A DNA stretch of 64,000 nucleotides, taken from assembly GCA_963749915.1 (NCBI GenBank), contig CAVVOP010000008.1, positions 672,001 to 736,000 of the forward strand, in the 5' to 3' direction. The DNA is from an uncultured cyanobacterium. GTDB taxonomy: Bacteria; Cyanobacteriota; Cyanobacteriia; Cyanobacteriales; Cyanobacteriaceae. The position numbers and the translations under genes were made by a program. Position 1 is the stretch's first letter. Each line of letters starts with the position of its first letter. Shown piece by piece: positions 5,556 to 24,737 of this stretch. Under the pieces are notes generated by a model. That model was not told where the DNA came from and did not search any database. It saw nothing but the letters and a program-made list of their open reading frames with translations.

Positions 5556-6989
5556 ATGACAAAACCTCTATTTTGTATTTGGAACAAGGAATCAGTTACT
5601 CTGATGGAAAGTAACCGAACCTTAGCCATTGAGAATCTAAATTTAATATCAGAGAAAATCATTCCCATTTTTGATGAAGCGACCCAAACCGCAGCTCATT
5701 GTTTAAATATACCTGTGTGTTGTTTAGGAATTTTACTAGAGAAAGAATATAAACTTAAATCTGCCTATGGTTTATCTAATTTGGGGTTGATGAATGATTT
5801 GGCAAAAACAAGAAAAATCGACCGCCAAAATGCTTTTGCAACCCATGTCATTGATAGTGGTAACTCTTTACTCATCGACAACACTTTAAGTGATCCTTTT
5901 TTTGGGCAAAGTCTTCTCACTCAACACTATGGCATCATCTCCTATTTAGGTGTGCCCTTAACCATCTCCAGTGGCATCTGTATCGGTTGTTTAGAAGTGA
6001 TTGATACAAAACCTCGACAATTTACCCCTACGGATATTAATTTTCTCATGATCACTGCTCGTTGGTGTATAGCAGAATACGAACGCAACGAATTAACCAC
6101 TAAAAAAGAGATAAATTCTGAGTCCAATAAAAATGATCAGGATATTAACCAAAATAGGTTAACAGTTGATTTTAAAGATACAACCTCTTCTACTTCCATT
6201 ATCAAAGATCAAAAAAATAAATATAATAATTCTGAGCAATATATCCGACAATTAAGTTTTCAACTGTTGAATAAATTAGCCCATAAGCTATCTATTCCTT
6301 TAACTTCGGTCATTGGAATGTCCAGTGTTCTCAAACAGGAAATTTACGGAAAACTTAACCCCAAACAACTAGAATATTTAGAAATTATCCACGATAGCGG
6401 TCAGGAAATGACTACTTTAATCAATGAAATTACTAAATTAGCTAGTATTAAAACCGAAGTTAACCTCGAATTTGTACCTGTAGATTTAGAAAATTTAGCC
6501 ACGCAAGTCATTAAAAATTTAGAAACCGTTGCTCGTAATCGTGAACATACTTTAAGATTATCTATTGAACCTGGCGAAAAAGTTTGGAATTTAGATCGAG
6601 AAAAAGTCAAAAAAACTTTATATTATCTTCTTATTACTATTATTGAAGGTTCAAGGGCAGGGGGAGAAATACAAATACACATATCTCACCGATTCCAAAG
6701 GCTCAAAATTAATTGTTGGGTAAATCATCCTTGGTTGGGGGATGGAATTTCTTTCGAGAAAATTAGTAGTTATGAGCAGGCTTTGAAAAGTAATACTAAA
6801 CTTGCTCAAATCTTAGAAGATAATGAGGGCATAGACCCCAATTTAGCTATTCAAAATTACTATGATTATGATTTAATTTGCTTATTATTTAGTGCTTATT
6901 TAGCACATCTTCAGAAGGGTAGTATCTCTTTGCACGGTTCAGCCGAATCCACCTATCGTTTTGTGATTTTTATCCCTCTTCCCCACTAA
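5556..6989 (+). CDS. GAF-domain sensor histidine kinase-like protein (degenerate)
   Basis: N-terminal GAF (YLGVPL...IGCLEVIDTKPRQF), HisKA-like AHKLSIPLTSVIG, divergent HATPase-like C-terminus. Confidence 0.8.
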   Translation: MTKPLFCIWNKESVTLMESNRTLAIENLNLISEKIIPIFDEATQTAAHCLNIPVCCLGILLEKEYKLKSAYGLSNLGLMNDLAKTRKIDRQNAFATHVIDSGNSLLIDNTLSDPFFGQSLLTQHYGIISYLGVPLTISSGICIGCLEVIDTKPRQFTPTDINFLMITARWCIAEYERNELTTKKEINSESNKNDQDINQNRLTVDFKDTTSSTSIIKDQKNKYNNSEQYIRQLSFQLLNKLAHKLSIPLTSVIGMSSVLKQEIYGKLNPKQLEYLEIIHDSGQEMTTLINEITKLASIKTEVNLEFVPVDLENLATQVIKNLETVARNREHTLRLSIEPGEKVWNLDREKVKKTLYYLLITIIEGSRAGGEIQIHISHRFQRLKINCWVNHPWLGDGISFEKISSYEQALKSNTKLAQILEDNEGIDPNLAIQNYYDYDLICLLFSAYLAHLQKGSISLHGSAESTYRFVIFIPLPH

Positions 6990-8692: not shown

Positions 8693-11323
8693 ATGCAGCC
8701 AACTGACCCAAATAAGTTCACTGAAATTGCCTGGGATGCTATTGTGCGATCCCAGGAGATTTGTCGTAATTTAAAAAATCAAAATTTAGAAGTAGAACAT
8801 CTAATTCTAGCTTTGTTAGAAGAAAATACCATCGCCACAAAAATTTTCAGCCAAGCTAACATTGATTTAACTAGGTTAGATAAACAGTTACAGACATTTG
8901 CCGCCCGTCAACCGAGAATGTTTAGTGTCGAACAGTTATACTTGGGGCGCAGTTTGGATTTAATGTTGGATAGGGCCGAAAATTGTCGAGAAAGTTGGCA
9001 AGATGAGTTTGTTGGCATATCTCATTTATTAGTTGCCTTTGCCGAAGATCAAAGAATTGGCAAGAAAACCTTGCGTAGTTTTAACCTCGATCCTCAAGAC
9101 TTCGAGATCAAAGTCAAAGATTTTAAGATGTTGATCGAGAAAACCGAAGCTGAATCCACAGAAACCTCAGAAAGCACTGAAAAAGAGCCTCCTTTAATAA
9201 AATTTGGTCGAGATTTAACGGAAGAAGCCAAAGCTGGGAAATTAGATCCCGTTATCGGGAGGGATGATGAAGTTAGACGTGTTATTCAAGTATTGTCAAG
9301 GCGTTCTAAAAATAATCCCGTCTTAATTGGTGAACCCGGGGTAGGTAAAACTGCCATCGCAGAAGGATTAGCCCAAAGAATCGTTAACGGAGATGTGCCA
9401 GAATCATTGAAAAACCGTCAGTTAATTTCCCTTGATATGGGGAGTTTAATCGCTGGGGCAAAATATCGAGGACAATTTGAGGAAAGATTGCGATCGGTCT
9501 TAAAAGAAGTGATCAACTCTGATGGGCAAATAATTCTATTTATTGATGAACTACATACAGTTGTCGGTGCCGGTTCGAGGGAAGGGGGGGCAATGGATGC
9601 CGGAAACTTGCTCAAGCCTTTATTAGCGAGGGGAGAATTACGTTGTATCGGTGCTAGTACCCTTGATGAATACCGTAAACATATCGAAAAGGATCCTGCC
9701 TTAGAAAGACGTTTTCAACAGGTGTATATTAAACAGCCTAGCGTCGAGGATACCATTTCTATTCTACGGGGATTAAAAGAACGTTATGAGGTGCATCATG
9801 GGGTAAAAATCACCGATTCAGCTTTAATTGCGGCGGCTACTCTTTCTCATCGTTATATTACGGGGCGTTTTCTTCCTGACAAAGCCATTGATTTAGTAGA
9901 TGAGGCAGCGGCTAAGTTGAAAATGGAGATCACCTCTAAACCCGTTGAATTAGAAGTCCTCGATCGCCGTTTGATGCAACTACAAATGGAACAATTATCT
10001 CTGCAAGGAGAGGAAAAAAATGATAAATCTGCCCAAGAAAATTTAGAACGCATCACCGCAGAAATTGATGATTTGCAGATAAAACAACGAGAATTATCCT
10101 CTCAGTGGCTAATAGAGAAGGAATTGCTTGATGAAATTCACGAGTTGAAAGAGGAAGAAAAAGAGCTAAGATTACAAGTCGAACAGGCAGAAAGAGCTTA
10201 TGATTTAAACACCGCCGCCCAATTAAAATATGGCAAATTAGAGACTCTACAGCATGATATTGAGGGTAAAGAAGCAAAATTACTCGAAATTCAATCACAG
10301 GAAAACGCTATGCTTAGGGAAGATGTCACCGACGCGGATATAGCGGAAATAGTAGCAGGATGGACTGGTATTCCTGTTAACCGACTGTTAGAAACAGAGC
10401 GTCAAAAATTACTGGAACTAGAGACCCATTTACATGAGCGAGTCATCGGGCAAACTGAAGCCGTAGCCATTGTTTCTGCTGCCATAAGAAGGGCTAGGGC
10501 TGGCATGAAAGATCCCGGTCGTCCCATCGGTTCATTCCTGTTTATGGGACCTACAGGGGTCGGAAAAACTGAATTAGCAAGGGCATTGGCGGCTTTTTTG
10601 TTCGACTCGGAAGAGGCAATGGTCAGAATAGATATGTCCGAGTACATGGAAAAACACGCAGTGTCAAGGTTAATTGGTGCACCTCCGGGGTATATCGGTT
10701 ACGAAGAAGGAGGGCAATTATCGGAAGCTATACGCCGTCGTCCTTATTCAGTGGTATTGTTAGATGAAGTGGAAAAAGCCCATCGAGATGTATTCAATCT
10801 CCTTCTGCAAGTGTTAGATGATGGCAGAATTACCGATAGTCAAGGGCGTGTTGTCGATTTTCGCAATACGATTATCGTCATGACTTCTAATATCGGCAGT
10901 GAGTATATTTTGAATTTAGCTGGGGATGATAAAAATTACGAACAGATGCGAGATAAAGTATTAGTTTCTTTACAAAAACATTTCCGTCCTGAATTCTTGA
11001 ACCGCATCGACGACTTAATCATCTTCCATGGCTTGAAAAAAGAAGAATTACGGGAGATTGTCAGTTTACAATTAATTAGACTACAAAAACTCTTAGCAGA
11101 GCAAAATATTACCATTGAATTAACCCCAGAGGCACAGGATTATATTGTCGATGTGGGTTACAACCCTACCTATGGTGCTCGTCCTTTAAAACGGGCAATA
11201 CAGAGGGAGTTGGAAAATCCTCTGGCCACAAAAATCCTAGAAACTACTTTCAGCGATGGGGATAAGGTGATGGTTAGTTTTGAAGACGATGGATTAGTGT
11301 TTAATAAAAGTTTGCATGACTAA
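8693..11323 (+). CDS. clpB: ATP-dependent chaperone ClpB
   Basis: Two AAA+ modules ([16 protein letters not shown]), coiled-coil M domain, cyanobacterial [10 protein letters not shown] start. Confidence 0.97.
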
Positions 11324-11915: not shown

Positions 11916-12938
11916 CTAACCACAATTACACATCGGTTCGTTCTCCTTCTGTTCCAGATAAATAGGCCAATGGAACCAAGCATAATAAGTATCACCACAC
12001 ACTTTTGCCCCCAGATACTGCTTCTCGATGGCCTCATCAGAAGAGACACCAAAACTGGCAGCAACTAAATCCACACAACTGGATAACCCAATTCCCTGTC
12101 CACCCCTAGTATAACCACCCTGAAACAGGTCCTGTAGTCTTTCCCCTAATGCCTCTTGTAACCAGGTCTTTTGTCTGTGTGTTACCTGATTTTCTACCAC
12201 CCAACGAGTAAATAAGTTGTTAATGGGAATCACCTTCAGGCGAACATGGTCTCCGGCAGAAAAACGAATAGCATTGTTGATGTAGTTATACAAAATGCGA
12301 TCAACCGCAGAGCTTTCTAGACAACGATTGGTGATATAACAATCCAAGTCTGTCTCGGCCAAGATATGGACGCACTTGGAACCAATCTCCATGGTCAGTT
12401 GATGCCACTTATCGATAAATTCATGGATGTTGTGTAACTTCAGGCTTTCATCGGCGGCTCGGATGGCCACATCTAAGTCCGGGAGTATATTGCGCATCAT
12501 CTTGGCATGATCACGAGCCAAGAAAACTGCTTTGCGGACTAAGTTATCATCTTCTGGTAACCGAGAAATCAGTTTGGCGTAACCCGTCAATGAGCTTAGG
12601 GCCCCTCCACGAAGATCGTGACAGGCTTTGCGTAATTGTGGTGGTGGATCGTCGAGATTGTAACTGGCAACTCCAATGGCTCTTGCCGCCATAATTAACT
12701 CTGAGCTACAAGTTTGTTGAAGATGAGTACGTAAAAGTTGATAATTGGGACTATCACCCATATACAACCAGAGATCGTAAATGCTTTTTAGGGATTGGTA
12801 AAGTCGGAGCACCAGTGAGACATCCTTGGGGGCCATGTCACTCAAGGAAACACTAAACCCGCTACCATCATAACGCTCTTGGCGATTGATTTTTAAGTCG
12901 GTGCCAGTCAAATTGAGGTAAATTTCTTGGTTGTTCAT
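11916..12938 (-). CDS. Soluble histidine kinase-like ATPase with no evident sensor domain
   Basis: H-box-like CHDLRGGALSSL, N-box RILYNYINNAIRFS, F/G2 box LFQGGYTRGGQGIGLS. Confidence 0.7.
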   Translation of the reverse strand: MNNQEIYLNLTGTDLKINRQERYDGSGFSVSLSDMAPKDVSLVLRLYQSLKSIYDLWLYMGDSPNYQLLRTHLQQTCSSELIMAARAIGVASYNLDDPPPQLRKACHDLRGGALSSLTGYAKLISRLPEDDNLVRKAVFLARDHAKMMRNILPDLDVAIRAADESLKLHNIHEFIDKWHQLTMEIGSKCVHILAETDLDCYITNRCLESSAVDRILYNYINNAIRFSAGDHVRLKVIPINNLFTRWVVENQVTHRQKTWLQEALGERLQDLFQGGYTRGGQGIGLSSCVDLVAASFGVSSDEAIEKQYLGAKVCGDTYYAWFHWPIYLEQKENEPMCNCG

Positions 12939-13079: not shown

Positions 13080-14954
13080 CTAGTAAGGCAGTTGAGATAT
13101 TTGTTGGCAACAAATGTCACTGAAACTTAGACCATCGCTTAAGTATAATTTTTCTTCAGATTCCTGGGTTTTCACTAAAATTTCATTGTCTTGCCTAATA
13201 AGGAGGATGCCTTTGGGCAAAAGATCTCTAGCTAAAATCTTCTCTATTTCAGTCGGATTATCTAAAATAATTAGGTCACTACCTTGGTAAAAAGTACCTT
13301 GTGAGGCAAAAATTTCTTCTGAATATTCTGCGATTAAACAATCAAGTCCGGGATGACGAAGCAACATTTCTATATTCAAATTGTAATTTGAACGTAAAGT
13401 TTGCTGAGTGTGATTTAACCACATTCCCCCCTGACAAACACCGCCAATTAACCACTGGGGATGGGAAGATAAGATGGTGTTGATATACTGAGAAAGCGAC
13501 TCTTGTTCAAGACGATTGCAAGTGATAATCGGAATACGACTTTCTTGGCTAGAAGGGAAAAAATGCTTTATAATTCGACTTGGGACATCAACACTCTCGC
13601 CGATAGCTGGGTGCAAATGCATAAAAACGCCGGGGGCAGCATTAATTTCCAACACGGCAAGCCCACTTTCATGCCAAGATTGAGAAATATTTTCGGTGAT
13701 GACATCAACTCCTAGACAAACAAGACGAAAATATTGGGCGATATAAGTTGCTAGTTTTTGATTATCAGGATGAACTTTGTCCGTTACGTCAATGCTAACA
13801 CCACCACCAGAAATATTGGCAACTTGACTTAAATATACTGTTTGATCCAGTTTAGGAGTGCTGTTGAAAGATAACTTCTGTTGGGCGAGATAATTATCCA
13901 TCCTTGCATCAGGACGAATTTTAGTCAGGGTAGAAGTGGGGGTGTCTTGACGAGCAACAGTGGCATTTTCTTGCTCAATTAATTCAGCGATCGTCAACTT
14001 GCCATCACCAACGACAAATGGTGGACGACGTTCCAAACCGGCGACAAATTTCCCTCCCACACAAAGAAGACGAAAATCGGCACCGGCGATATTTTTTTCG
14101 ACAATAATAGGTATTCTGTAATGATTTGTGTCCGGATTGATTTGACGAAATGCTAAACGTAAGTCATCCTCTTCCTGGATATTAGCCGTTACACCAATTC
14201 CTTTGTGCCCACTTACCGGTTTGACAGCTACAGGATAACCAATTGTTTCTGCCACAGCTAAAGCCTTTTTTTCCGAGTAAACTACTTCCCCCTGGGGTAT
14301 GGGAAAACCACAATTAGCCAAAAAGTCTTTGCAATCATCTTTTTGGGTGGTGAAGTCTGAATCTAAATGACTATCGACATCAAAAGTAGTGCCCATTCCT
14401 CTAATTTGCAATTTTCCATAACCATATTGGATTAATCTTTCTTCGGTTAGATAAAAGAAGGGAATTTTTTGTAAATGAGCTGCTTTTAAGATAGCGTAGC
14501 TGGTGGGTCCACCATAAGGAGAGCTGGAAAAGATATCTTGTAGCTGATTCAGACGTCGATGGAATTTAAAGTGCTGATCATTAGCAATGGCGTCAAACCA
14601 ATCCTTAACTAAATAGATAGCTTCTTGTAATGTTTGATGGTGAAGAGACTCTATCGCAATAGAGCAACCTTTATCCTTGCTGGTTAAACTAAATTGGTGA
14701 AGGTGTAGTCCCATGTCTAGTCGACTTACGAAAGAAACTGTTTGAGCAAACAAATCTCCATAGGAGGAAAATTGTAATGAAGTTAACCCAGAAAGATATT
14801 TGCCAATTTCTTGTTGGTAATTTTCCAAGCTCAAAGATGCGACATTTTCCCCGGCAACGAAATCAAATGCGATCGCTTTACAATTGAGATAAGGATTTGG
14901 TCCGGCATAATATCTGAAATTGGAAAGATCTAAATACGAAGATTGATGATTCAC
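13080..14954 (-). CDS. cphA2: Cyanophycin synthetase 2-like (short, ATP-grasp only)
   Basis: 624 aa. YYAGPNPYL N-domain, YGGPTS, QYGYGK, AVKPVSGHKGIGVTAN, LEINAAPG. Lacks an intact Mur-ligase P-loop. Confidence 0.8.
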   Translation of the reverse strand: MNHQSSYLDLSNFRYYAGPNPYLNCKAIAFDFVAGENVASLSLENYQQEIGKYLSGLTSLQFSSYGDLFAQTVSFVSRLDMGLHLHQFSLTSKDKGCSIAIESLHHQTLQEAIYLVKDWFDAIANDQHFKFHRRLNQLQDIFSSSPYGGPTSYAILKAAHLQKIPFFYLTEERLIQYGYGKLQIRGMGTTFDVDSHLDSDFTTQKDDCKDFLANCGFPIPQGEVVYSEKKALAVAETIGYPVAVKPVSGHKGIGVTANIQEEDDLRLAFRQINPDTNHYRIPIIVEKNIAGADFRLLCVGGKFVAGLERRPPFVVGDGKLTIAELIEQENATVARQDTPTSTLTKIRPDARMDNYLAQQKLSFNSTPKLDQTVYLSQVANISGGGVSIDVTDKVHPDNQKLATYIAQYFRLVCLGVDVITENISQSWHESGLAVLEINAAPGVFMHLHPAIGESVDVPSRIIKHFFPSSQESRIPIITCNRLEQESLSQYINTILSSHPQWLIGGVCQGGMWLNHTQQTLRSNYNLNIEMLLRHPGLDCLIAEYSEEIFASQGTFYQGSDLIILDNPTEIEKILARDLLPKGILLIRQDNEILVKTQESEEKLYLSDGLSFSDICCQQISQLPY

Positions 14955-18421: not shown

Positions 18422-18515
18422 GGTCTGTCAAGATGGTTTTGAGGGACTGGGAACGGATAATTTTGGATTTTGGAGGATTGTTTTATCCCTCATTTCAAAA
18501 TTGGCAGACCACTAG
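18422..18515. mobile_element. MITE-like dispersed repeat, related in reverse orientation to 43624-43729
   Basis: GGTCTGTCAAGAT...GAGGGACTGGGAACGGATAATTTTGGATTTT...CCCTCATTTCAAAATTG...AGACCACTAG aligns with the reverse complement of 43624-43729. Confidence 0.85.
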
Positions 18516-18572: not shown

Positions 18573-19679
18573 ATGAATAAACTTATATATTCAATTACCC
18601 CAGTTGGTCTGGGTTATGCATCAATAATCTTTGTCGGCTTTGTGACTGTGATGTTTTTGGCTACAATCTTCTTGCCAGGGAAACAATATACAGGCTGTTT
18701 ACAACCAGACGGTAATCGCAAAACTTACAAACTTAATGGATTGCTGGTATTTATAGCAACTACCCTCATTGTAGCAGTACTCACCTTCAGATTCCACCTG
18801 ACACTCGCACCCCTAATTACCTATTTCTGGTCTTTGTTCATTGTTGCTAACCTATTTGCTTTTCTTTGGACTGGCATTTTATATGTAAAGACGCAAAGAA
18901 AACAGGCTGTTAGTAATCAACCACAACCGTTGGCTAAAATCTTTAGTAATTTATGGTTTGGCATGGAACTCAACCCAACTTGGCTGGGGGTTGATTTAAA
19001 AATGTTCGCCTACCAACCCTCTCTCATTAGTTTAGGACTAATAAATGCAGCATTTGCCTACGTGCAATCTGAAAAGTACGGGGAAATTACTCCACAAATG
19101 TTGATGTTCCAGGGGTTTTGGTGGCTGTACCTTGCCACTCACTATTACTATGAAGAATTCATGCTTTCGACCTGGGACATTATTGCTGAGAAATTGGGGT
19201 TCATGTTGATCTGGGGGGACTTAGTTTTGGTTCCTTTCTTTTACAGTATCATCGGCTGGTATTTAGTGGATGTAATTGAACCAATCCCAGTAGCTGGAGT
19301 AATTGCTATTAGCTTGCTTTACCTCGTGGGATTAACGATATTTCGGGGTGCTAATGCCCAAAAGCATCGCTTCAAGAAAAATTTTCAGGCAAGGATTTGG
19401 GGTCAGCCAGCTCAAACTTTAGAAGGAAAGCTTTTGGTGTCTGGTTGGTGGGGTATTGGTCGCAAGCTTAACTATACAGGTGAAATTTGTGTCTATTTTG
19501 CACTAGCATTAACCACCGGGTTTAACTCAATTATCCCCTACCTGCTACCTCTGTGGTTGTGCGTCCTCTTATCTCATAGGGCATGGCGTGACGAACAGCG
19601 TTGCCAAGCAAAGTATGGTAATCTTTGGAAGATTTACTGCACTAAAGTCCGATTTCGGATGCTACCCTTTGTTTATTAA
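18573..19679 (+). CDS. ERG4/ERG24-family sterol reductase (C14-reductase-like)
   Basis: Multi-TM protein with GMELNP, DLKMF, STWDIIAEKLGFMLIWGDL, LLVSGWWGIGRKLNYTGE and HRAWRDEQRCQAKYG. Confidence 0.9.
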   Translation: MNKLIYSITPVGLGYASIIFVGFVTVMFLATIFLPGKQYTGCLQPDGNRKTYKLNGLLVFIATTLIVAVLTFRFHLTLAPLITYFWSLFIVANLFAFLWTGILYVKTQRKQAVSNQPQPLAKIFSNLWFGMELNPTWLGVDLKMFAYQPSLISLGLINAAFAYVQSEKYGEITPQMLMFQGFWWLYLATHYYYEEFMLSTWDIIAEKLGFMLIWGDLVLVPFFYSIIGWYLVDVIEPIPVAGVIAISLLYLVGLTIFRGANAQKHRFKKNFQARIWGQPAQTLEGKLLVSGWWGIGRKLNYTGEICVYFALALTTGFNSIIPYLLPLWLCVLLSHRAWRDEQRCQAKYGNLWKIYCTKVRFRMLPFVY

Positions 19680-19708
19680 ACTTAAATTTTTGAAGATTAA
19701 TTTTAAAA

Positions 19709-21034
19709 ATGGTGAGAACACTTTCCCCTGATATAGTCGTGATTGGTGCAGGTCCAGTCGGTTGCGTGACTGCCATAGCTTGGGCTCATAGTGGGGCAAA
19801 AGTCATGTTGTTGGAGGCGCAAGCCCAAAAGAAAAAACGGCTGGCAGGAGAATGGTTGCACCCCCCTGGCGTGCAAGTCTTAGAGCGTTTGGGTCTTTTA
19901 ATGGCTTTTGAGCCAGTTAATTATGCGACAGGTCTTGGTTTTGTTGTCTTTACTGATGATGGTAGTGAGCCAATTCCACTTCATTACCCTAATCATGCAA
20001 TGGGGATTAGTTGTGAACATAATCACATCGTTTCTACACTGCAGAAAGCGGCCGCTGATTGTGAGGGGGTAAATTATATCCCTAGTGCTCGGGTGACGAA
20101 GATTCAGGGGGGGCAGTTAACCTTTAAAGACCTCAAAGGAGGAGAAAATTTTACTATCTCCAGCAAACTCATTGTGGGAGCAGATGGTCGTTCCTCAGCA
20201 GCTCGCAAAGCTCTGGGTATTCCCCATAAAGTCCAACCGGTTTCCTATATGGCGGGGGTGCTACTGGAAAATGTTGAGTTACCCTTTGAAGGCTTTGGTC
20301 ATTTGTTTTTAGGGGGACCAGGACCTATCACTGCATATCGCGTTAGTCACAATCAAGTCCGTATTTGCCTCGATGTGCCACTGGATTTTTCTAAAAAATC
20401 TGTTGATTTGTGGGATGTCTATAGTCCTATTCTACCGTCGGAATTGCTGGAGGCATTTCGCCAGACCTTAGAAAAAGGGGAAGTCTTGTGGGTGGCAAAC
20501 CAGTATAGTCCTCGCATTCACTACGGTTGTCAGAGTTTGGCACTGGTAGGCGATGCAACTGGATACTTCCATCCGATGACGGCAACAGGCATGACCATCG
20601 GTTTTATGGATGCAGAGTGTCTTTTGCACAGTAACAGTTTTAACAAGTACCAGAGTCAACGTAGTTGGGGAACCTATGTGCCAGAAATGCTCGCGACTAC
20701 TCTTTATGAGGTGTTTTGCCATGATGATGACAGTGCTGTAGCCATCCGCAGGGCCGTATATAAAATGTGGCGACAAGACCCAAAAGAATGCGTTCGCACC
20801 ATGCATTTACTATCCGGCGCTCAAACAAATCTCTGGCATTTTATCAGCTCATTTCTCAAAGCATTGGTGCTGGCTGTCGAATCAGTAATCCAGAAATATG
20901 GTTCTCAGAGGCAATGGCGACAGTTGATCCCAGCTTTGGGGGCTTTTGGTAAGTGGCTGCGATGGCCCATTGTTATTGCCTGGTCCCGTCTTCCCATCAT
21001 TAACATTTTTCTAAATCATGAACCAAGACATTGA
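19709..21034 (+). CDS. Squalene epoxidase (squalene monooxygenase)
   Basis: FAD GAGPVG, RLAGEWLHPPG (cf. RIVGELLQPGG), VGADG, GDATGYFHPMTATGMT (cf. GDAxNMRHPLTGGGMT). Adjacent to an OSC gene. Confidence 0.88.
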   Translation: MVRTLSPDIVVIGAGPVGCVTAIAWAHSGAKVMLLEAQAQKKKRLAGEWLHPPGVQVLERLGLLMAFEPVNYATGLGFVVFTDDGSEPIPLHYPNHAMGISCEHNHIVSTLQKAAADCEGVNYIPSARVTKIQGGQLTFKDLKGGENFTISSKLIVGADGRSSAARKALGIPHKVQPVSYMAGVLLENVELPFEGFGHLFLGGPGPITAYRVSHNQVRICLDVPLDFSKKSVDLWDVYSPILPSELLEAFRQTLEKGEVLWVANQYSPRIHYGCQSLALVGDATGYFHPMTATGMTIGFMDAECLLHSNSFNKYQSQRSWGTYVPEMLATTLYEVFCHDDDSAVAIRRAVYKMWRQDPKECVRTMHLLSGAQTNLWHFISSFLKALVLAVESVIQKYGSQRQWRQLIPALGAFGKWLRWPIVIAWSRLPIINIFLNHEPRH

Positions 21035-23003
21035 ATTCACCGCCAACTCCACTACCACTCTTGAACGTGCCATTAGGTCTTTGATTTCCCGACAACAAGC
21101 CGACGGTTCTTGGGAGGGAGAGGTAGTGTGGTGTCCCCTGCTACCAGCCCAGTATGTGCTTATGTGTCACATTACTCAAACACCAGTTTCAACAGAACGC
21201 CGGCAGGCTATCCTACAGCAATTCAAGACAACTCGTCTGCCTTGTGGTTTGTGGGGATTGCATGATAAGTCCCAGCCTTACTTATTTGTCACAACCCTTG
21301 TCTATGTATCTGCCCGTCTCTTAGGTCTGCCCAAAGAAGACCCGCTTTTAGCTCAACCCCTAAAATTTATACGGGAACAGGGGGGTGTGGTCACCATTCC
21401 CACCTGGGGAAAATTCTGGTTAGCTATGATGAATCTTTACGATTGGCGTGGTGTTAATCCAGTATTGCCCGAAGTATGGCTGCTGCCAAAATGGATACCT
21501 GTTCATCCAGGAAATTTTTACTGTCACACGCGACTAATTTATCTGCCGATGGGCTTTATTTATGGGCGGAAGTTTCAGCTTCCCTTAACACCATTAATTG
21601 AAATGTTACGCTCCGAGTTGTATGTGGATGATTACCAGCAGGTTAACTTTAAGGCAGCACGGTTAATGTTAAGGCAAGAGGAAGTTTATAGTCCTCCCGG
21701 TGCACTCCTGAAGCTAATCTACAAATTAAGTGGTCTTTACGAACGATGGCATCATCAAGGTTGGCGACGAAAAGTGCTTGCTCAAATGATAGACCTGATC
21801 CGCTTTGAGTTACAGACAACTGATTATACGAGTCTGTCTCCCGTTAGTGGCTTACTAAACATGATCGCCCTTTGGCTGCACGACCCCAAGGACGCAGACT
21901 TGCACAGAGCATTAGAACGCTTTGAAGGGTGGATCTGGCAAGACGAACAAGCGGGAATTAGGGTTGTAGGGGCACGCAGTAGTACTTGGGACACTAGTTT
22001 TGCTATTCAAGCCTTACAAGCAGCCAGTTCTTATGAAGACGTTTCTGCCAGTCTTTTGAAAGGGCAGCAGTTTCTTGCCAGTCAACAGATTTGCCAAACC
22101 TTTGCTAATCTACAAATGTTTCCAGGAACTTCTCTAAACTATCGCATCGATCCCAAAGGAGGATTCTGCTTCGCTGGGGTTTGGCATGGGTGGCCCGTGA
22201 GTGACTGTACTGCTGAGGCACTCCTAGCATTATTAGATGCCCCACCTGAAGTAATTGCCAATTGTAATTTGCAGGATGCGGTGGAATTTATCCTCCGTTG
22301 TCAAAACGCCGATGGTGGTTTTGGCAGTTACGAGCGCCGCAAGATTGCCTCAACCCTGGAGTGGATGAACCCAGCCGAGATGTTTGCTAACTCAATGACC
22401 GAGCATTCCTATATCGAGTGTACAGCCTCTAGTCTCATGGCACTGAGGGAATTTTTGACTTATTACCCAGAAATAATGAGTGATAAAATTGACACTGCTA
22501 TTCAACGGGCTAGCTTATGGTTGCGACGACAGCAGGGGCCCGACGGCTCTTGGTTAGGTTTTTGGGGCGTGAATTTCATCTATGGCACCATGTTTGCCAT
22601 TCACGGCCTATTAGCAGCAACTAATACGACCAATGACCCGGCCATCCGCAAAGGGTGTCGTTGGTTAATAAGTAAACAAAGACCAGATGGGGGATGGGGA
22701 GAACATTTCCGGGGCTGTTTGACGGGTGAATATGTGGAACATACTGAAAGTCAAGTCACTCAAACTGCTTGGGCAATGATGGCCTTACTTAAAGCAGATG
22801 GGAACCATTGGCAGGAAATTACCAGAGGGGCAAGTTTTCTGAGAGATATGCAATTAGAAAATGGCGAATGGGCCGAACAAGATTGGAGTGGGTTGTTCTT
22901 CCAGACGGTATTGTTGGATTATAAGCTTTATCGCCTTTACTTTCCAGTATGGGCACTATCTTTGTATGAGTCGCAGCGGCAGAAAGACTTACTTTCTCCC
23001 TAG
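21018..23003 (+). CDS. osc: 2,3-oxidosqualene cyclase
   Basis: Catalytic VSDCTAE (not the DxDD of squalene-hopene cyclases), IPTWGKFWL, FYCHTRLIYLPM, YIECTAS, QW repeats (QQADGSW, QNADGGF, QGPDGSW, QRPDGGWGE, QLENGEW). Confidence 0.95.
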   Translation: MNQDIEFTANSTTTLERAIRSLISRQQADGSWEGEVVWCPLLPAQYVLMCHITQTPVSTERRQAILQQFKTTRLPCGLWGLHDKSQPYLFVTTLVYVSARLLGLPKEDPLLAQPLKFIREQGGVVTIPTWGKFWLAMMNLYDWRGVNPVLPEVWLLPKWIPVHPGNFYCHTRLIYLPMGFIYGRKFQLPLTPLIEMLRSELYVDDYQQVNFKAARLMLRQEEVYSPPGALLKLIYKLSGLYERWHHQGWRRKVLAQMIDLIRFELQTTDYTSLSPVSGLLNMIALWLHDPKDADLHRALERFEGWIWQDEQAGIRVVGARSSTWDTSFAIQALQAASSYEDVSASLLKGQQFLASQQICQTFANLQMFPGTSLNYRIDPKGGFCFAGVWHGWPVSDCTAEALLALLDAPPEVIANCNLQDAVEFILRCQNADGGFGSYERRKIASTLEWMNPAEMFANSMTEHSYIECTASSLMALREFLTYYPEIMSDKIDTAIQRASLWLRRQQGPDGSWLGFWGVNFIYGTMFAIHGLLAATNTTNDPAIRKGCRWLISKQRPDGGWGEHFRGCLTGEYVEHTESQVTQTAWAMMALLKADGNHWQEITRGASFLRDMQLENGEWAEQDWSGLFFQTVLLDYKLYRLYFPVWALSLYESQRQKDLLSP

Positions 23004-23038
23004 ATCGACAAACTTTTGAAAAAAATTTACGAATTGTT

Positions 23039-23635
23039 ATGAATTACATTTTTGATCCCAAAATACTACATAAAATTACCAAGAAAGCCATGGGACTACC
23101 TTACGAACAAATGTTTGAGACAGTCAGAATAGAGTTAGAGCAAAAATATCCAGGCAGAATTAACGACAAAATCCAATGGATGTTTAACAATGCTGGAGGC
23201 TGTATGTATAGCGTTGCCGTTCTTCATGCTTCTTTAAGAGAATATCTTCTGATCTTTGGCTCCCCTATCGGTACCCAAGGACATACAGGTCGGCATTTTA
23301 CACAAATCTACGATTTTGTCATAGACGGAGAACTTTGGTACTTTAAAGAAGATCGTCCTTTTGAACGCATAGTGCATAAATCTGGAGATAGATACCATTT
23401 GGGCAAATCCCAGAGTGAGGGGCTGTGTATTCCTGACCAAGCTTGGGTTCTGGAATATGCCAGGGGATTTATCCCTTCTATGCTTCCTTTTGGTTTGGCC
23501 GATTCTGTTTTTAGCACCTTAGACTGGAAAACAGTGGGTTATACCTTTGGCATCTATGGTAAGCTTTTACTTAAAGATCTCTGGAACAAAACTCACACCA
23601 ATTCTCGACCATCCGCGTCAAAGGAGATGCCATGA
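23039..23635 (+). CDS. ERG2/sigma-1 receptor family sterol C8 isomerase-like protein
   Basis: WMFNNAGG, LHASLREYLLIFGSPIGTQGHTGRH and LEYARGFIPSMLPFGLADSVFSTLD closely follow fungal ERG2 motifs. Confidence 0.9.
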   Translation: MNYIFDPKILHKITKKAMGLPYEQMFETVRIELEQKYPGRINDKIQWMFNNAGGCMYSVAVLHASLREYLLIFGSPIGTQGHTGRHFTQIYDFVIDGELWYFKEDRPFERIVHKSGDRYHLGKSQSEGLCIPDQAWVLEYARGFIPSMLPFGLADSVFSTLDWKTVGYTFGIYGKLLLKDLWNKTHTNSRPSASKEMP

Positions 23636-24621
23636 CTGCACGCTTTCCCTTTTCTGCTTTTCCCAATGGCTGGTTTCGAGTTGCCTACAGCGATGAACTA
23701 CCTCCTGGTGAGGTCAAACCTCTATATTACTTTGGTAAGGATTGGGTTCTTTTTCGCACAGAAGATGGTTTACCCCGAGTGTTCGATGCTCATTGTCCAC
23801 ACTTAGGAGCTCACCTTGGTTATGGGGGTCGAGTAGAAGGTGACAATATCCGCTGTCCTTTTCATGGCTGGTGTTTTGACCATGAGGGGCAATGCGTGCA
23901 AATTCCCCACAGCACCAAAGTACCGCCTAAAGCCCAAATCGGTTCTTTATCAGTTTGTGAGGTTAACGGGCTGATTATGGTTTACCACCACTCACAAGGA
24001 GAAGCACCCAGTTGGCAAATGCCCAAACTTCCGGAGTGGAATTCTCAAGATTGGATCCCCTTTCAACGACGAAGTTGGAAAATCCGCACCCATCCCCAGG
24101 AAATGGCTGAGAATGCCATGGATACAGCCCATATGCTCCATTTGCACGGACAATCATTCCGCACCATAGAAAAGGCTGAGTTTGATATCAACGGTACTAC
24201 CCTTGTGCATCGATTGAGCCCCCAATATCGGTTGTCCATCTTTGGAAAATTGGGAATTGGTGCGGAGGGTTTGGTAGAAATTAGCTGCTATGGCTTGGGC
24301 TGTCAGGTTAGTTATGCCCAGGTGAAAGCGATGATTGAGTTTCATAGTCTGACGTTATTTATGCTAACTCCCATTGATGGAGAGTTTCTCGATGTCCATG
24401 TATTAGTAAGTACAAAAAAGGTCTTCAATAAAGTCATTACCTATGCCCTAAGAAGTAAAAGTATGGCGGAAGTTAGTTACAATTTAGAGCAAGATATTCC
24501 GATTTGGGAAAACAAGGTTTATCGCAGTCAGCCGTTGCTCAGTGAAGCAGATGGACCAATTATGCAGTATCGGCACTGGGGGCAACAATTTTATGCTCAT
24601 GTACCTCTGAACAGTCAATAA
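23632..24621 (+). CDS. Rieske [2Fe-2S] non-heme iron oxygenase (Neverland/DAF-36/KshA-like)
   Basis: FPNGW, CPHLGAHLG...CPFHGW, iron site ENAMDTAHMLHLH, EQDIPIWENK, DGPIMQYRHWGQQFY. Confidence 0.88.
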   Translation: MTARFPFSAFPNGWFRVAYSDELPPGEVKPLYYFGKDWVLFRTEDGLPRVFDAHCPHLGAHLGYGGRVEGDNIRCPFHGWCFDHEGQCVQIPHSTKVPPKAQIGSLSVCEVNGLIMVYHHSQGEAPSWQMPKLPEWNSQDWIPFQRRSWKIRTHPQEMAENAMDTAHMLHLHGQSFRTIEKAEFDINGTTLVHRLSPQYRLSIFGKLGIGAEGLVEISCYGLGCQVSYAQVKAMIEFHSLTLFMLTPIDGEFLDVHVLVSTKKVFNKVITYALRSKSMAEVSYNLEQDIPIWENKVYRSQPLLSEADGPIMQYRHWGQQFYAHVPLNSQ

Positions 24622-24737
24622 TCTTTAGCATCGAGACTCAAGATCTATTTTTCAATTCTCCTCTTTTTTTCTGATTTTTACCTTAAGTATATATACTTAT
24701 TTTGTTTTCTTTTGTTTTAAACTGCGGAATATGGGTT

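Follow-up and report, generated by a model that had tools for sequence, protein, structure and literature searches.

A probable sterol biosynthesis operon in a Geminocystis-like cyanobacterium, with further pathway genes at two other loci

A 64,000-nt stretch of DNA from an uncultured cyanobacterium (the window, C8:672001-736000 in a 4.69-Mb genome of 34 contigs) contains a compact group of five genes (18573..24621). These probably form the leading section of a gene set for de novo sterol synthesis that the host acquired from another cyanobacterium as a single cluster, later split. The original prediction described a closely spaced operon for a sterol reductase, a squalene epoxidase (SE), a cyclase, an ERG2-like isomerase and a Rieske oxygenase, and these features were confirmed. 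All five open reading frames (ORFs) are on the + strand, intact and free of internal stops, the intergenic distances are 29, -17, 35 and -4 bp, and Pfam assigned the products to ERG4_ERG24, SE, SQHop_cyclase (N and C), ERG2_Sigma1R and Rieske plus KshA_C. The gene identities and the assignment to a sterol pathway were upheld, and between squalene and cholesterol no step lacks a candidate gene in the host genome. What did not survive was the proposal of a self-contained five-gene cassette for an unusual lipid, as genes for CYP51, SdmA, SdmB, GGR and a DHCR7-like protein lie elsewhere in the genome. A stand-alone cassette that turns lanosterol into a novel sterol-like lipid would fit the window itself, where these five are the only sterol genes. 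It is very improbable, because the C-14 reductase depends on the product of CYP51 and because the other genes are present in the genome with scars of past linkage.

The ERG24 product found its top match in the PDB in a Delta14-sterol reductase (4quv, E 4e-66) and is 85% identical to the product of a Calothrix rhizosoleniae gene assigned as a C-14 reductase by homology in Lee et al. (2023; PMC10202945). For SE, the sole PDB match at E<=1e-12 was squalene monooxygenase 6c6n. The oxidosqualene cyclase (OSC) carries DCTAE, from residue 396, in place of DxDD, and it scored 718 bits on the oxidosqualene cyclase model TIGR03463 versus 286 bits on the hopene cyclase model. This score falls short of the curated TIGR03463 cut-off (851 bits) but exceeds that of the broader TIGR01787. 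Compared with structures, OSC matched human lanosterol synthase (1w6k) at E 9e-138 and squalene-hopene cyclase (SHC) at E 2e-57. It is 65% identical to the OSC of Calothrix sp. NIES-4105 and has the same residue at all 21 active-site positions, which were picked by hand from the 1w6k alignment and whose catalytic roles we assume. The window OSC is predicted to be a lanosterol synthase, and lanosterol was the product when the Calothrix NIES-4105 OSC was expressed (PMC10202945). The ERG2 product is 72-85% identical to those of Calothrix genes tabulated in the same paper as C-8 isomerase.

Table 1. Genes and repeat of the sterol operon region, with the DHCR7-like gene found outside the window (coordinates are those of the window unless a contig is named)
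Feature	Coordinates	Strand	Size and principal match
Host repeat, MITE-like, with terminal inverted arms	18422..18510	.	upstream of operon; 25-nt arms 72% complementary
ERG4/ERG24-family reductase, putative sterol C-14 reductase (ERG24)	18573..19679	+	368 aa; PF01222 E 2e-74
Squalene epoxidase (SE)	19709..21034	+	441 aa; PF08491, SE E 1e-28
Oxidosqualene cyclase (OSC), putative lanosterol synthase	21018..23003	+	661 aa; SQHop_cyclase N+C
ERG2-type sterol C-8 isomerase (Delta8 to Delta7), putative	23039..23635	+	198 aa; PF04622 E 3.5e-59
KshA/Neverland-type Rieske non-heme iron oxygenase	23632..24621	+	329 aa; Rieske + KshA_C E 6e-34
DHCR7-like gene, second ERG4/24-family member	C8:510463-511746		427 aa; 180 kb from window operon

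The remaining candidates were found at two other loci (C8, which carries the window, C11, C22 and C27 are contigs of the host genome). C27 contains GGR, SdmB, CYP51 and SdmA genes (131161-135911) that are 85-90% identical to the post-Rieske genes of L002 and L003. These belong to a set of six loci (L002-L005, L019 and L026) from C. rhizosoleniae SC01, Rivularia MS3, Hormoscilla species (L004, L019 and L026) and a Nostoc metagenome-assembled genome (MAG). The C27 CYP51 had PDB matches at E 1e-130, while SdmA and SdmB scored best on their own NCBIfam models (407 and 327 bits), both under the cut-offs of 600. The C27 GGR is 89% identical to a C. rhizosoleniae protein listed as a homologue of the C-24 reductase Bsr (PMC12004948). 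The DHCR7-like protein is 31% identical to the window ERG24 and 67% identical to the product of a gene within the Scytonema PCC 10023 cluster, and its relatives were mostly named, automatically, as 7-dehydrocholesterol reductase, with one Delta24(24(1)) reductase. A search of 10 other cyanobacterial genomes with OSC gave no match to it at orthologue level, and the six matches there (31-39% identity) look like those genomes' own ERG24. In 400 other genomes sampled from the phylum, PF01222 gave short C-terminal matches only. Squalene synthase is encoded by a host-like gene at C22:52700, unlinked to the sterol loci. Homologues of all seven members of the gene set of Lee et al. (squalene monooxygenase (SMO), OSC, CYP51, C-14 reductase, SdmA, SdmB and C-8 isomerase) are present in the genome, split over three loci and not in the single cluster described there.

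Two scars indicate that the loci were once joined. A frameshifted 5' fragment of an EBP/EXPERA gene lies immediately 5' of the DHCR7-like gene and matches the post-Rieske gene of L003 over 163 bp at 79% identity. On C27, a 96-bp copy of the 3' end of the DHCR7-like gene (95% identity) lies immediately 5' of GGR. An independent metagenome contig (L176) carries the end of an EBP gene followed by DHCR7 (89% identical) and a Rieske paralogue. In this contig the end of DHCR7, together with its 3' flank, is 86% identical to the C27 scar over 147 bp. An EBP 3' remnant ahead of GGR was also considered and rejected, as the alignment was unconvincing and the sequence is the 3' flank of DHCR7. The scars point to one ancestral cluster, ERG24-SE-OSC-ERG2-Rieske-EBP-DHCR7-GGR-SdmB-CYP51-SdmA, that was later split with partial duplication; the Rieske-EBP linkage in this order is based on the gene order in relatives, with no scar in the window. 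EBP would, by family, presumably duplicate the activity of ERG2.

A scan of species genomes recovered 79 OSC loci, 16 of them cyanobacterial, and the window gene order recurs among these. It is contiguous in L002 and L003 and has one inserted gene in L005, while L004, L019 and L026 include a truncated Rieske gene and the Calothrix NIES-4105 sterol cluster (L012) a broken ERG24. SE and OSC form a single fused ORF of 1114-1116 aa in L002 (957-4304), L003 (6639-9983) and L005 (6636-9986) and are unfused in the window, likewise in the Hormoscilla loci L004 and L026. In the Hormoscilla clusters, Rieske and GGR have gone by an apparent single deletion, with both ends remaining (L004:7657-7965, L019:10613-10840, L026:10614-10920). 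Several related clusters have gained a sulfotransferase, glycosyltransferase, Cupin_8 protein or methyltransferase gene (L005:3912-4505 and 10073-11158; L002:6124-7242; L012:14349-15227), a sign that other cyanobacteria may conjugate or tailor their sterols.

The sterol genes have a restricted distribution around the host, here termed Geminocystis-like because its SHC shares 81-84% identity with Geminocystis proteins. OSC was found in none of the 400 other genomes sampled from the phylum, and an SHC query that detects the window OSC at E 1e-41 gave no second hit of the OSC kind in 30 relatives. CYP51 was found in none of the six same-genus genomes searched. Five same-genus genomes gave no DNA matches to the sterol genes of any of the three loci, and neighbouring genes such as spoT had DNA matches of 78-86% in same-genus genomes. 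In a FastTree phylogeny of 73 rows (bacterial only, with 8 of the 79 loci excluded as partial or broken), the window OSC fell inside a clade of cyanobacterial sequences (local support 100%) that contained 15 named cyanobacterial rows and the query. The nearest sequences were those of C. rhizosoleniae, Rivularia MS3, Hormoscilla and the Nostoc MAG. Horizontal gain, as originally proposed, is thus borne out by the finding of OSC in none of the sampled phylum genomes and by its nesting among Nostocales and Hormoscilla OSCs, and transfer of the cluster between cyanobacteria appears to be the simplest reading. A eukaryotic or myxobacterial donor for the window copy was rejected, as the OSC nests among cyanobacteria in this bacterial-only tree. 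The higher GC content noted for the cassette was also confirmed (0.447 compared with 0.323 for the flanking kinase gene, 0.377 for spoT and 0.381 for the window). The elevation is genuine, yet modest: 54 of 1514 6-kb windows of the genome equal or exceed this value, and GC at third codon positions in the operon (0.38-0.45) is at the 87th-94th percentile among 2758 crude ORFs of the genome. The repeat upstream of the operon (Table 1), which resembles a miniature inverted-repeat transposable element (MITE), had 56 blastn matches in the genome, 28 of them near full length, and a second copy lies immediately 3' of SdmA on C27.

Taken together, a Geminocystis-like host would have gained a single cluster from another cyanobacterium, which then broke into three loci with loss of the redundant EBP isomerase. 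The host squalene synthase would supply squalene, to be converted by SE and then OSC to lanosterol. CYP51 would act at C-14, followed by ERG24, and SdmA and SdmB would act twice at C-4. ERG2 would then give a Delta7 sterol, the Rieske oxygenase a Delta5,7 sterol and DHCR7 a Delta5 sterol, and GGR is predicted, as a Bsr homologue, to act at C-24. A C27 sterol would result, with cholesterol or its late precursors the likeliest; cholesterol itself as end product we regard as a tentative assignment, somewhat short of an even chance. Expression of the genes and each enzyme activity in the host are likewise predictions.

The top PDB match of the window Rieske oxygenase was the hydroxylase KshA (E 2e-40). 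The protein has CxH-x17-CxxH (residue 55) and E-x3-D-x2-H-x4-H (residue 160), and some of its relatives were automatically named cholesterol 7-desaturase. Both motifs conform to those defined for Neverland (CxH-x16/17-CxxH and E/D-x3-D-x2-H-x4-H; PMC7609953). It is not a second SdmA, as it scored 74 bits on the SdmA model compared with 407 for the C27 gene, and the identity between them (about 30%) is confined to the Rieske domain. Within 8 kb of OSC, a copy of this Rieske gene is intact in 11 of the 16 cyanobacterial loci, truncated in three and not present in two, compared with its occurrence in five of the 400 phylum genomes in which OSC was not found. Since ERG2 yields Delta7 sterols and DHCR7 requires Delta5,7 dienes, a C-5 desaturase is needed between them. 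The window Rieske is a candidate for this Delta7-sterol C-5 desaturase, though we would put the assignment at a little under an even chance.

An alternative of similar standing, also slightly less than evenly probable, keeps the same pathway but makes the Rieske oxygenase either a KshA-like tailoring hydroxylase acting on the ring or side chain or a C-7 desaturase of the Neverland type. An unlinked ERG3-like gene would then account for desaturation at C-5, or that step would be missing, and the product would be an oxysterol or a lathosterol-type lipid. As well as the match to KshA, the finding of two or three Rieske paralogues, P450s, a glycosyltransferase and a sulfotransferase in many of the clusters is a pointer to tailoring. 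This alternative also draws on the 25-hydroxycholesterol reported from Calothrix hydrolysates (PMC10202945) and on the occurrence of the Rieske family in five of the 400 phylum genomes, in which OSC was not found. The genome also contains an ERG3-like gene of the fatty acid hydroxylase family (C11:25956-26729; L118:1171-1947), which was not found in six same-genus genomes. Arguing for the C-5 role, nine of the 12 rows in the group that includes the window Rieske lie directly after ERG2 and one follows ERG2-DHCR7. The Scytonema cluster has DHCR7 beside two Rieske genes, and Scytonema gave no match to the ERG3-like gene. The latter does not track the sterol genes, as it was found in 28 of 200 phylum genomes but in only two of five OSC genomes. 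Neverland of Drosophila pachea converts lathosterol to 7-dehydrocholesterol (PMC8863297; bioRxiv 2025.04.14.648839).

Several observations weigh against the pathway as proposed here. The presence of the ERG3-like gene, which could perform the C-5 step, is one. The window ERG24 departs from 4quv at two conserved-looking sites in a hand-read alignment (D244 to T and H248 to Y), which we take to have a functional role. The DHCR7 label depends on automatic annotation. The GGRs of C. rhizosoleniae and Nostoc NIES-4103, listed as C-24 reductase homologues, are just 34% identical to the assayed Sandaracinus Bsr (PMC12004948). In addition, sterol production by Calothrix NIES-4105 ceased during the study of Lee et al., who considered the lipid result inconclusive (PMC10202945). 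The broken genes in that strain may bear on this: in its cluster (L012:2214-2330, 6003-6518 and 11975-12900) an internal deletion leaves the C-14 reductase as an ORF of only 171 aa, and both EBP and one GGR are fragmented.

Such losses, together with the truncated Rieske and GGR genes of the three Hormoscilla loci, raise the question of whether the cluster was gained and rearranged in this host and has since fallen silent or begun to decay. The three-way split and the destroyed EBP would be consistent with this, and a promoter scan found no sigma-70-like site upstream of the operon on the + strand. However, the scan gave fewer sites than shuffled sequences did and carries little weight. All ten enzyme genes are intact, the sole loss being the redundant EBP. 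Compared with L003 or L176, the ratio of non-synonymous to synonymous substitution rates (dN/dS) was 0.06-0.25 for all ten, which indicates purifying selection. It is a long-branch average and no proof of present-day function, which must also be counted on the negative side. Near-identical full-length copies (98.6-99.8%) of OSC, Rieske, CYP51, SdmA, GGR and DHCR7 occur in other assemblies, so that each of the three loci is represented by at least one near-identical protein. Silence or decay is therefore considered improbable.

Less probable still, and by some way, is that sterol genes of another cyanobacterium were joined to this genome by an assembly or binning error. Six sediment metagenome runs from three studies contained 0.23-0.81 of the sampled words (X1 the most, 0.81), and one of them may be the source sample. 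Repeats lie at both junctions of the operon. Two further findings count against the proposed structure: among the contigs listed for four of the six runs, none bridged either junction, and contigs from X2 and X6 bear at least 255 unlike letters before position 24629. This unlike DNA may derive from a cassette-free strain or a repeat, and depth in X1 was threefold at 24629-24729. When four runs were compared over the operon and its flanks, cover extended to 30 of 30 bins in X2, 29 in X3, 23 in X6 and 15 in X1. X2 and X3 had similar low depth over operon and flanks, and X1, with only about 37% of the run read, gave no cover over the operon. A contig from X3 covers the SE/OSC boundary (20778-21263) with zero differences. 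The three loci lie on two contigs (940 and 155 kb) beside genes with 78-86% DNA matches in the same genus, the host repeat after SdmA is about 98% identical to other copies in the genome, and the scars cross-link all three. Completeness of the genome was 100% and contamination 2.09%. A chimeric assembly is thus unlikely.

The host SHC (C8:448654-450603; L083:8655-10604, - strand) is a full-length protein in which the final Asp of the DxDD motif, D386, is replaced by Y, a position that is D in 119 of 119 homologues and aligns with D377 of the Alicyclobacillus enzyme. The D377C change in that enzyme gave a monocyclic product and strongly decreased activity (PMC6127371). Y622N (Y in 118 of 119 homologues) and I450T (I in 119 of 119) were also found, and in all the protein has seven departures from near-invariant columns compared with a median of one, the third highest among 120. 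General decay of the gene was rejected, as dN/dS (0.08-0.11) is like that for other pairs in the genus (0.08-0.14). No independent copy of the allele was found in a pattern scan of metagenome contigs, from which near-identical records may have been missing, and the SHC cluster has one member. As dN/dS is not raised and no second copy was found, recent relaxation, a changed function and a base error are all possible. Possibly, the host SHC is losing hopene synthesis. Loss of hpnH and hpnG as an effect of sterol gain was rejected, as neither gene was found in the host, nor in two other genomes that have no OSC (G401 and G403). A general loss of SHC with OSC was likewise not supported, SHC being present in five of 10 OSC genomes, though these are few and of uncertain completeness. 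With its damaged SHC, the host may offer a natural example of hopanoids giving way to sterols. The full scenario, in which a unicellular cyanobacterium makes cholesterol with a Neverland-type Rieske as C-5 desaturase and swaps hopanoids for sterols as SHC loses its motif, we consider unlikely; in the literature covered, that desaturase role was nowhere reported for an enzyme from bacteria.

Although the original prediction did not recognise the gene combination, it corresponds to the 5' half of the sterol cluster that Lee et al. described in cyanobacteria (PMC10202945). The combination is known, and the host lineage and the three-part layout are new. Supplementary Data 1 of that paper lists SMO, OSC, C-14 reductase and C-8 isomerase with neighbouring locus tags in C. 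rhizosoleniae, three Hormoscilla and two further Calothrix. Earlier work identified five cyanobacterial genomes with OSC (PMC4919349) and noted that cyanobacterial osc has ERG4/24, ERG2, ERG11 and Rieske genes as neighbours (PMC7306690). The one cyanobacterial cluster studied experimentally is that of Calothrix NIES-4105, where the SdmAB proteins strip both C-4 methyls and the genes form one 21-kb cluster (PMC10202945), compared with three loci here. Its order is ERG24-SE-OSC-ERG2-Rieske, then EBP, GGR, SdmB and CYP51, and identities to the host are 65% for OSC, 72% for ERG2, 67% for Rieske, 72% for SdmB and 76% for CYP51. An additional methyltransferase gene and a second GGR are present there, and a search for a DHCR7 orthologue found none. 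The six loci introduced above are closer (OSC 76-79%) and retain the same gene order through SdmA, and C. rhizosoleniae and Hormoscilla from this set are tabulated in PMC10202945. They differ from the host in the fused SE-OSC of L002, L003 and L005, in the absence of intact Rieske and GGR in Hormoscilla, and in DHCR7, for which a search of three of their genomes gave no orthologue. No assay of these clusters was met with in the literature covered.

The predicted host route to C27 sterols would work in the same way as those of Calothrix and the myxobacteria. The myxobacterial cholesterol pathway of Enhygromyxa, Sandaracinus and Minicystis (PMC10202945, PMC12004948) also has SdmAB-type C-4 demethylation and a Bsr-type C-24 reductase, and the host DHCR7 is 53% identical to a Minicystis rosea protein. 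Unlike the myxobacteria, for which a C-5 desaturase homologue is listed, the cyanobacterial clusters are without one and have instead a KshA/Neverland-type Rieske beside ERG2. The window Rieske has the Rieske plus KshA_C architecture and both iron motifs in common with KshA (3-ketosteroid 9alpha-hydroxylase) and Neverland/DAF-36. KshA serves catabolism, and the substrate of Neverland in animals is dietary sterol; the likeness of the window Rieske to Neverland is one of motifs and automatic names.

In the table of PMC10202945, a paper that terms de novo sterol synthesis in cyanobacteria controversial, the columns for 7-dehydroreductase, C-5 desaturase and C-24 reductase are empty for all eight cyanobacteria. 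The predicted gene set of the host is more complete than in those eight. In the literature covered, which took in few subscription papers, we found no account of a sterol cluster in a Geminocystis-like host, of a DHCR7 with a cyanobacterial oxidosqualene cyclase or of a hopene cyclase with a damaged DxDD in such a host. Nor was a KshA/Neverland-type Rieske proposed there as a C-5 desaturase, in text that did not extend to figure labels such as those of Fig. 4a in Lee et al. (2023). As the ten-gene set is intact and includes candidates for the C-5 desaturase and 7-dehydroreductase gaps, the route could be rebuilt in Escherichia coli or yeast with no need to culture the host. Success there would have implications for the use of cholestane as a eukaryote biomarker and would add a new bacterial sterol enzyme.

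Some neighbouring genes were also recorded. Directly 5' of the C27 sterol operon is katG, encoding a catalase-peroxidase (C27:128726-130918; L081:6727-8922), with a GC content of 59% that places it in the top 0.2% of ORFs; it is probably a separate foreign gene. SdmA is followed (L081:13969-18145) by genes for a Spherulin-4 family protein, a large membrane protein and a GalE-like protein. These had no gene-length DNA match in five same-genus genomes, which suggests that the C27 half sits within a larger foreign island. In the window, the minus-strand gene at 13080-14954 encodes a 624-aa ATP-grasp protein with a RimK-like Pfam match, which we take to resemble a short relative of cyanophycin synthetase.

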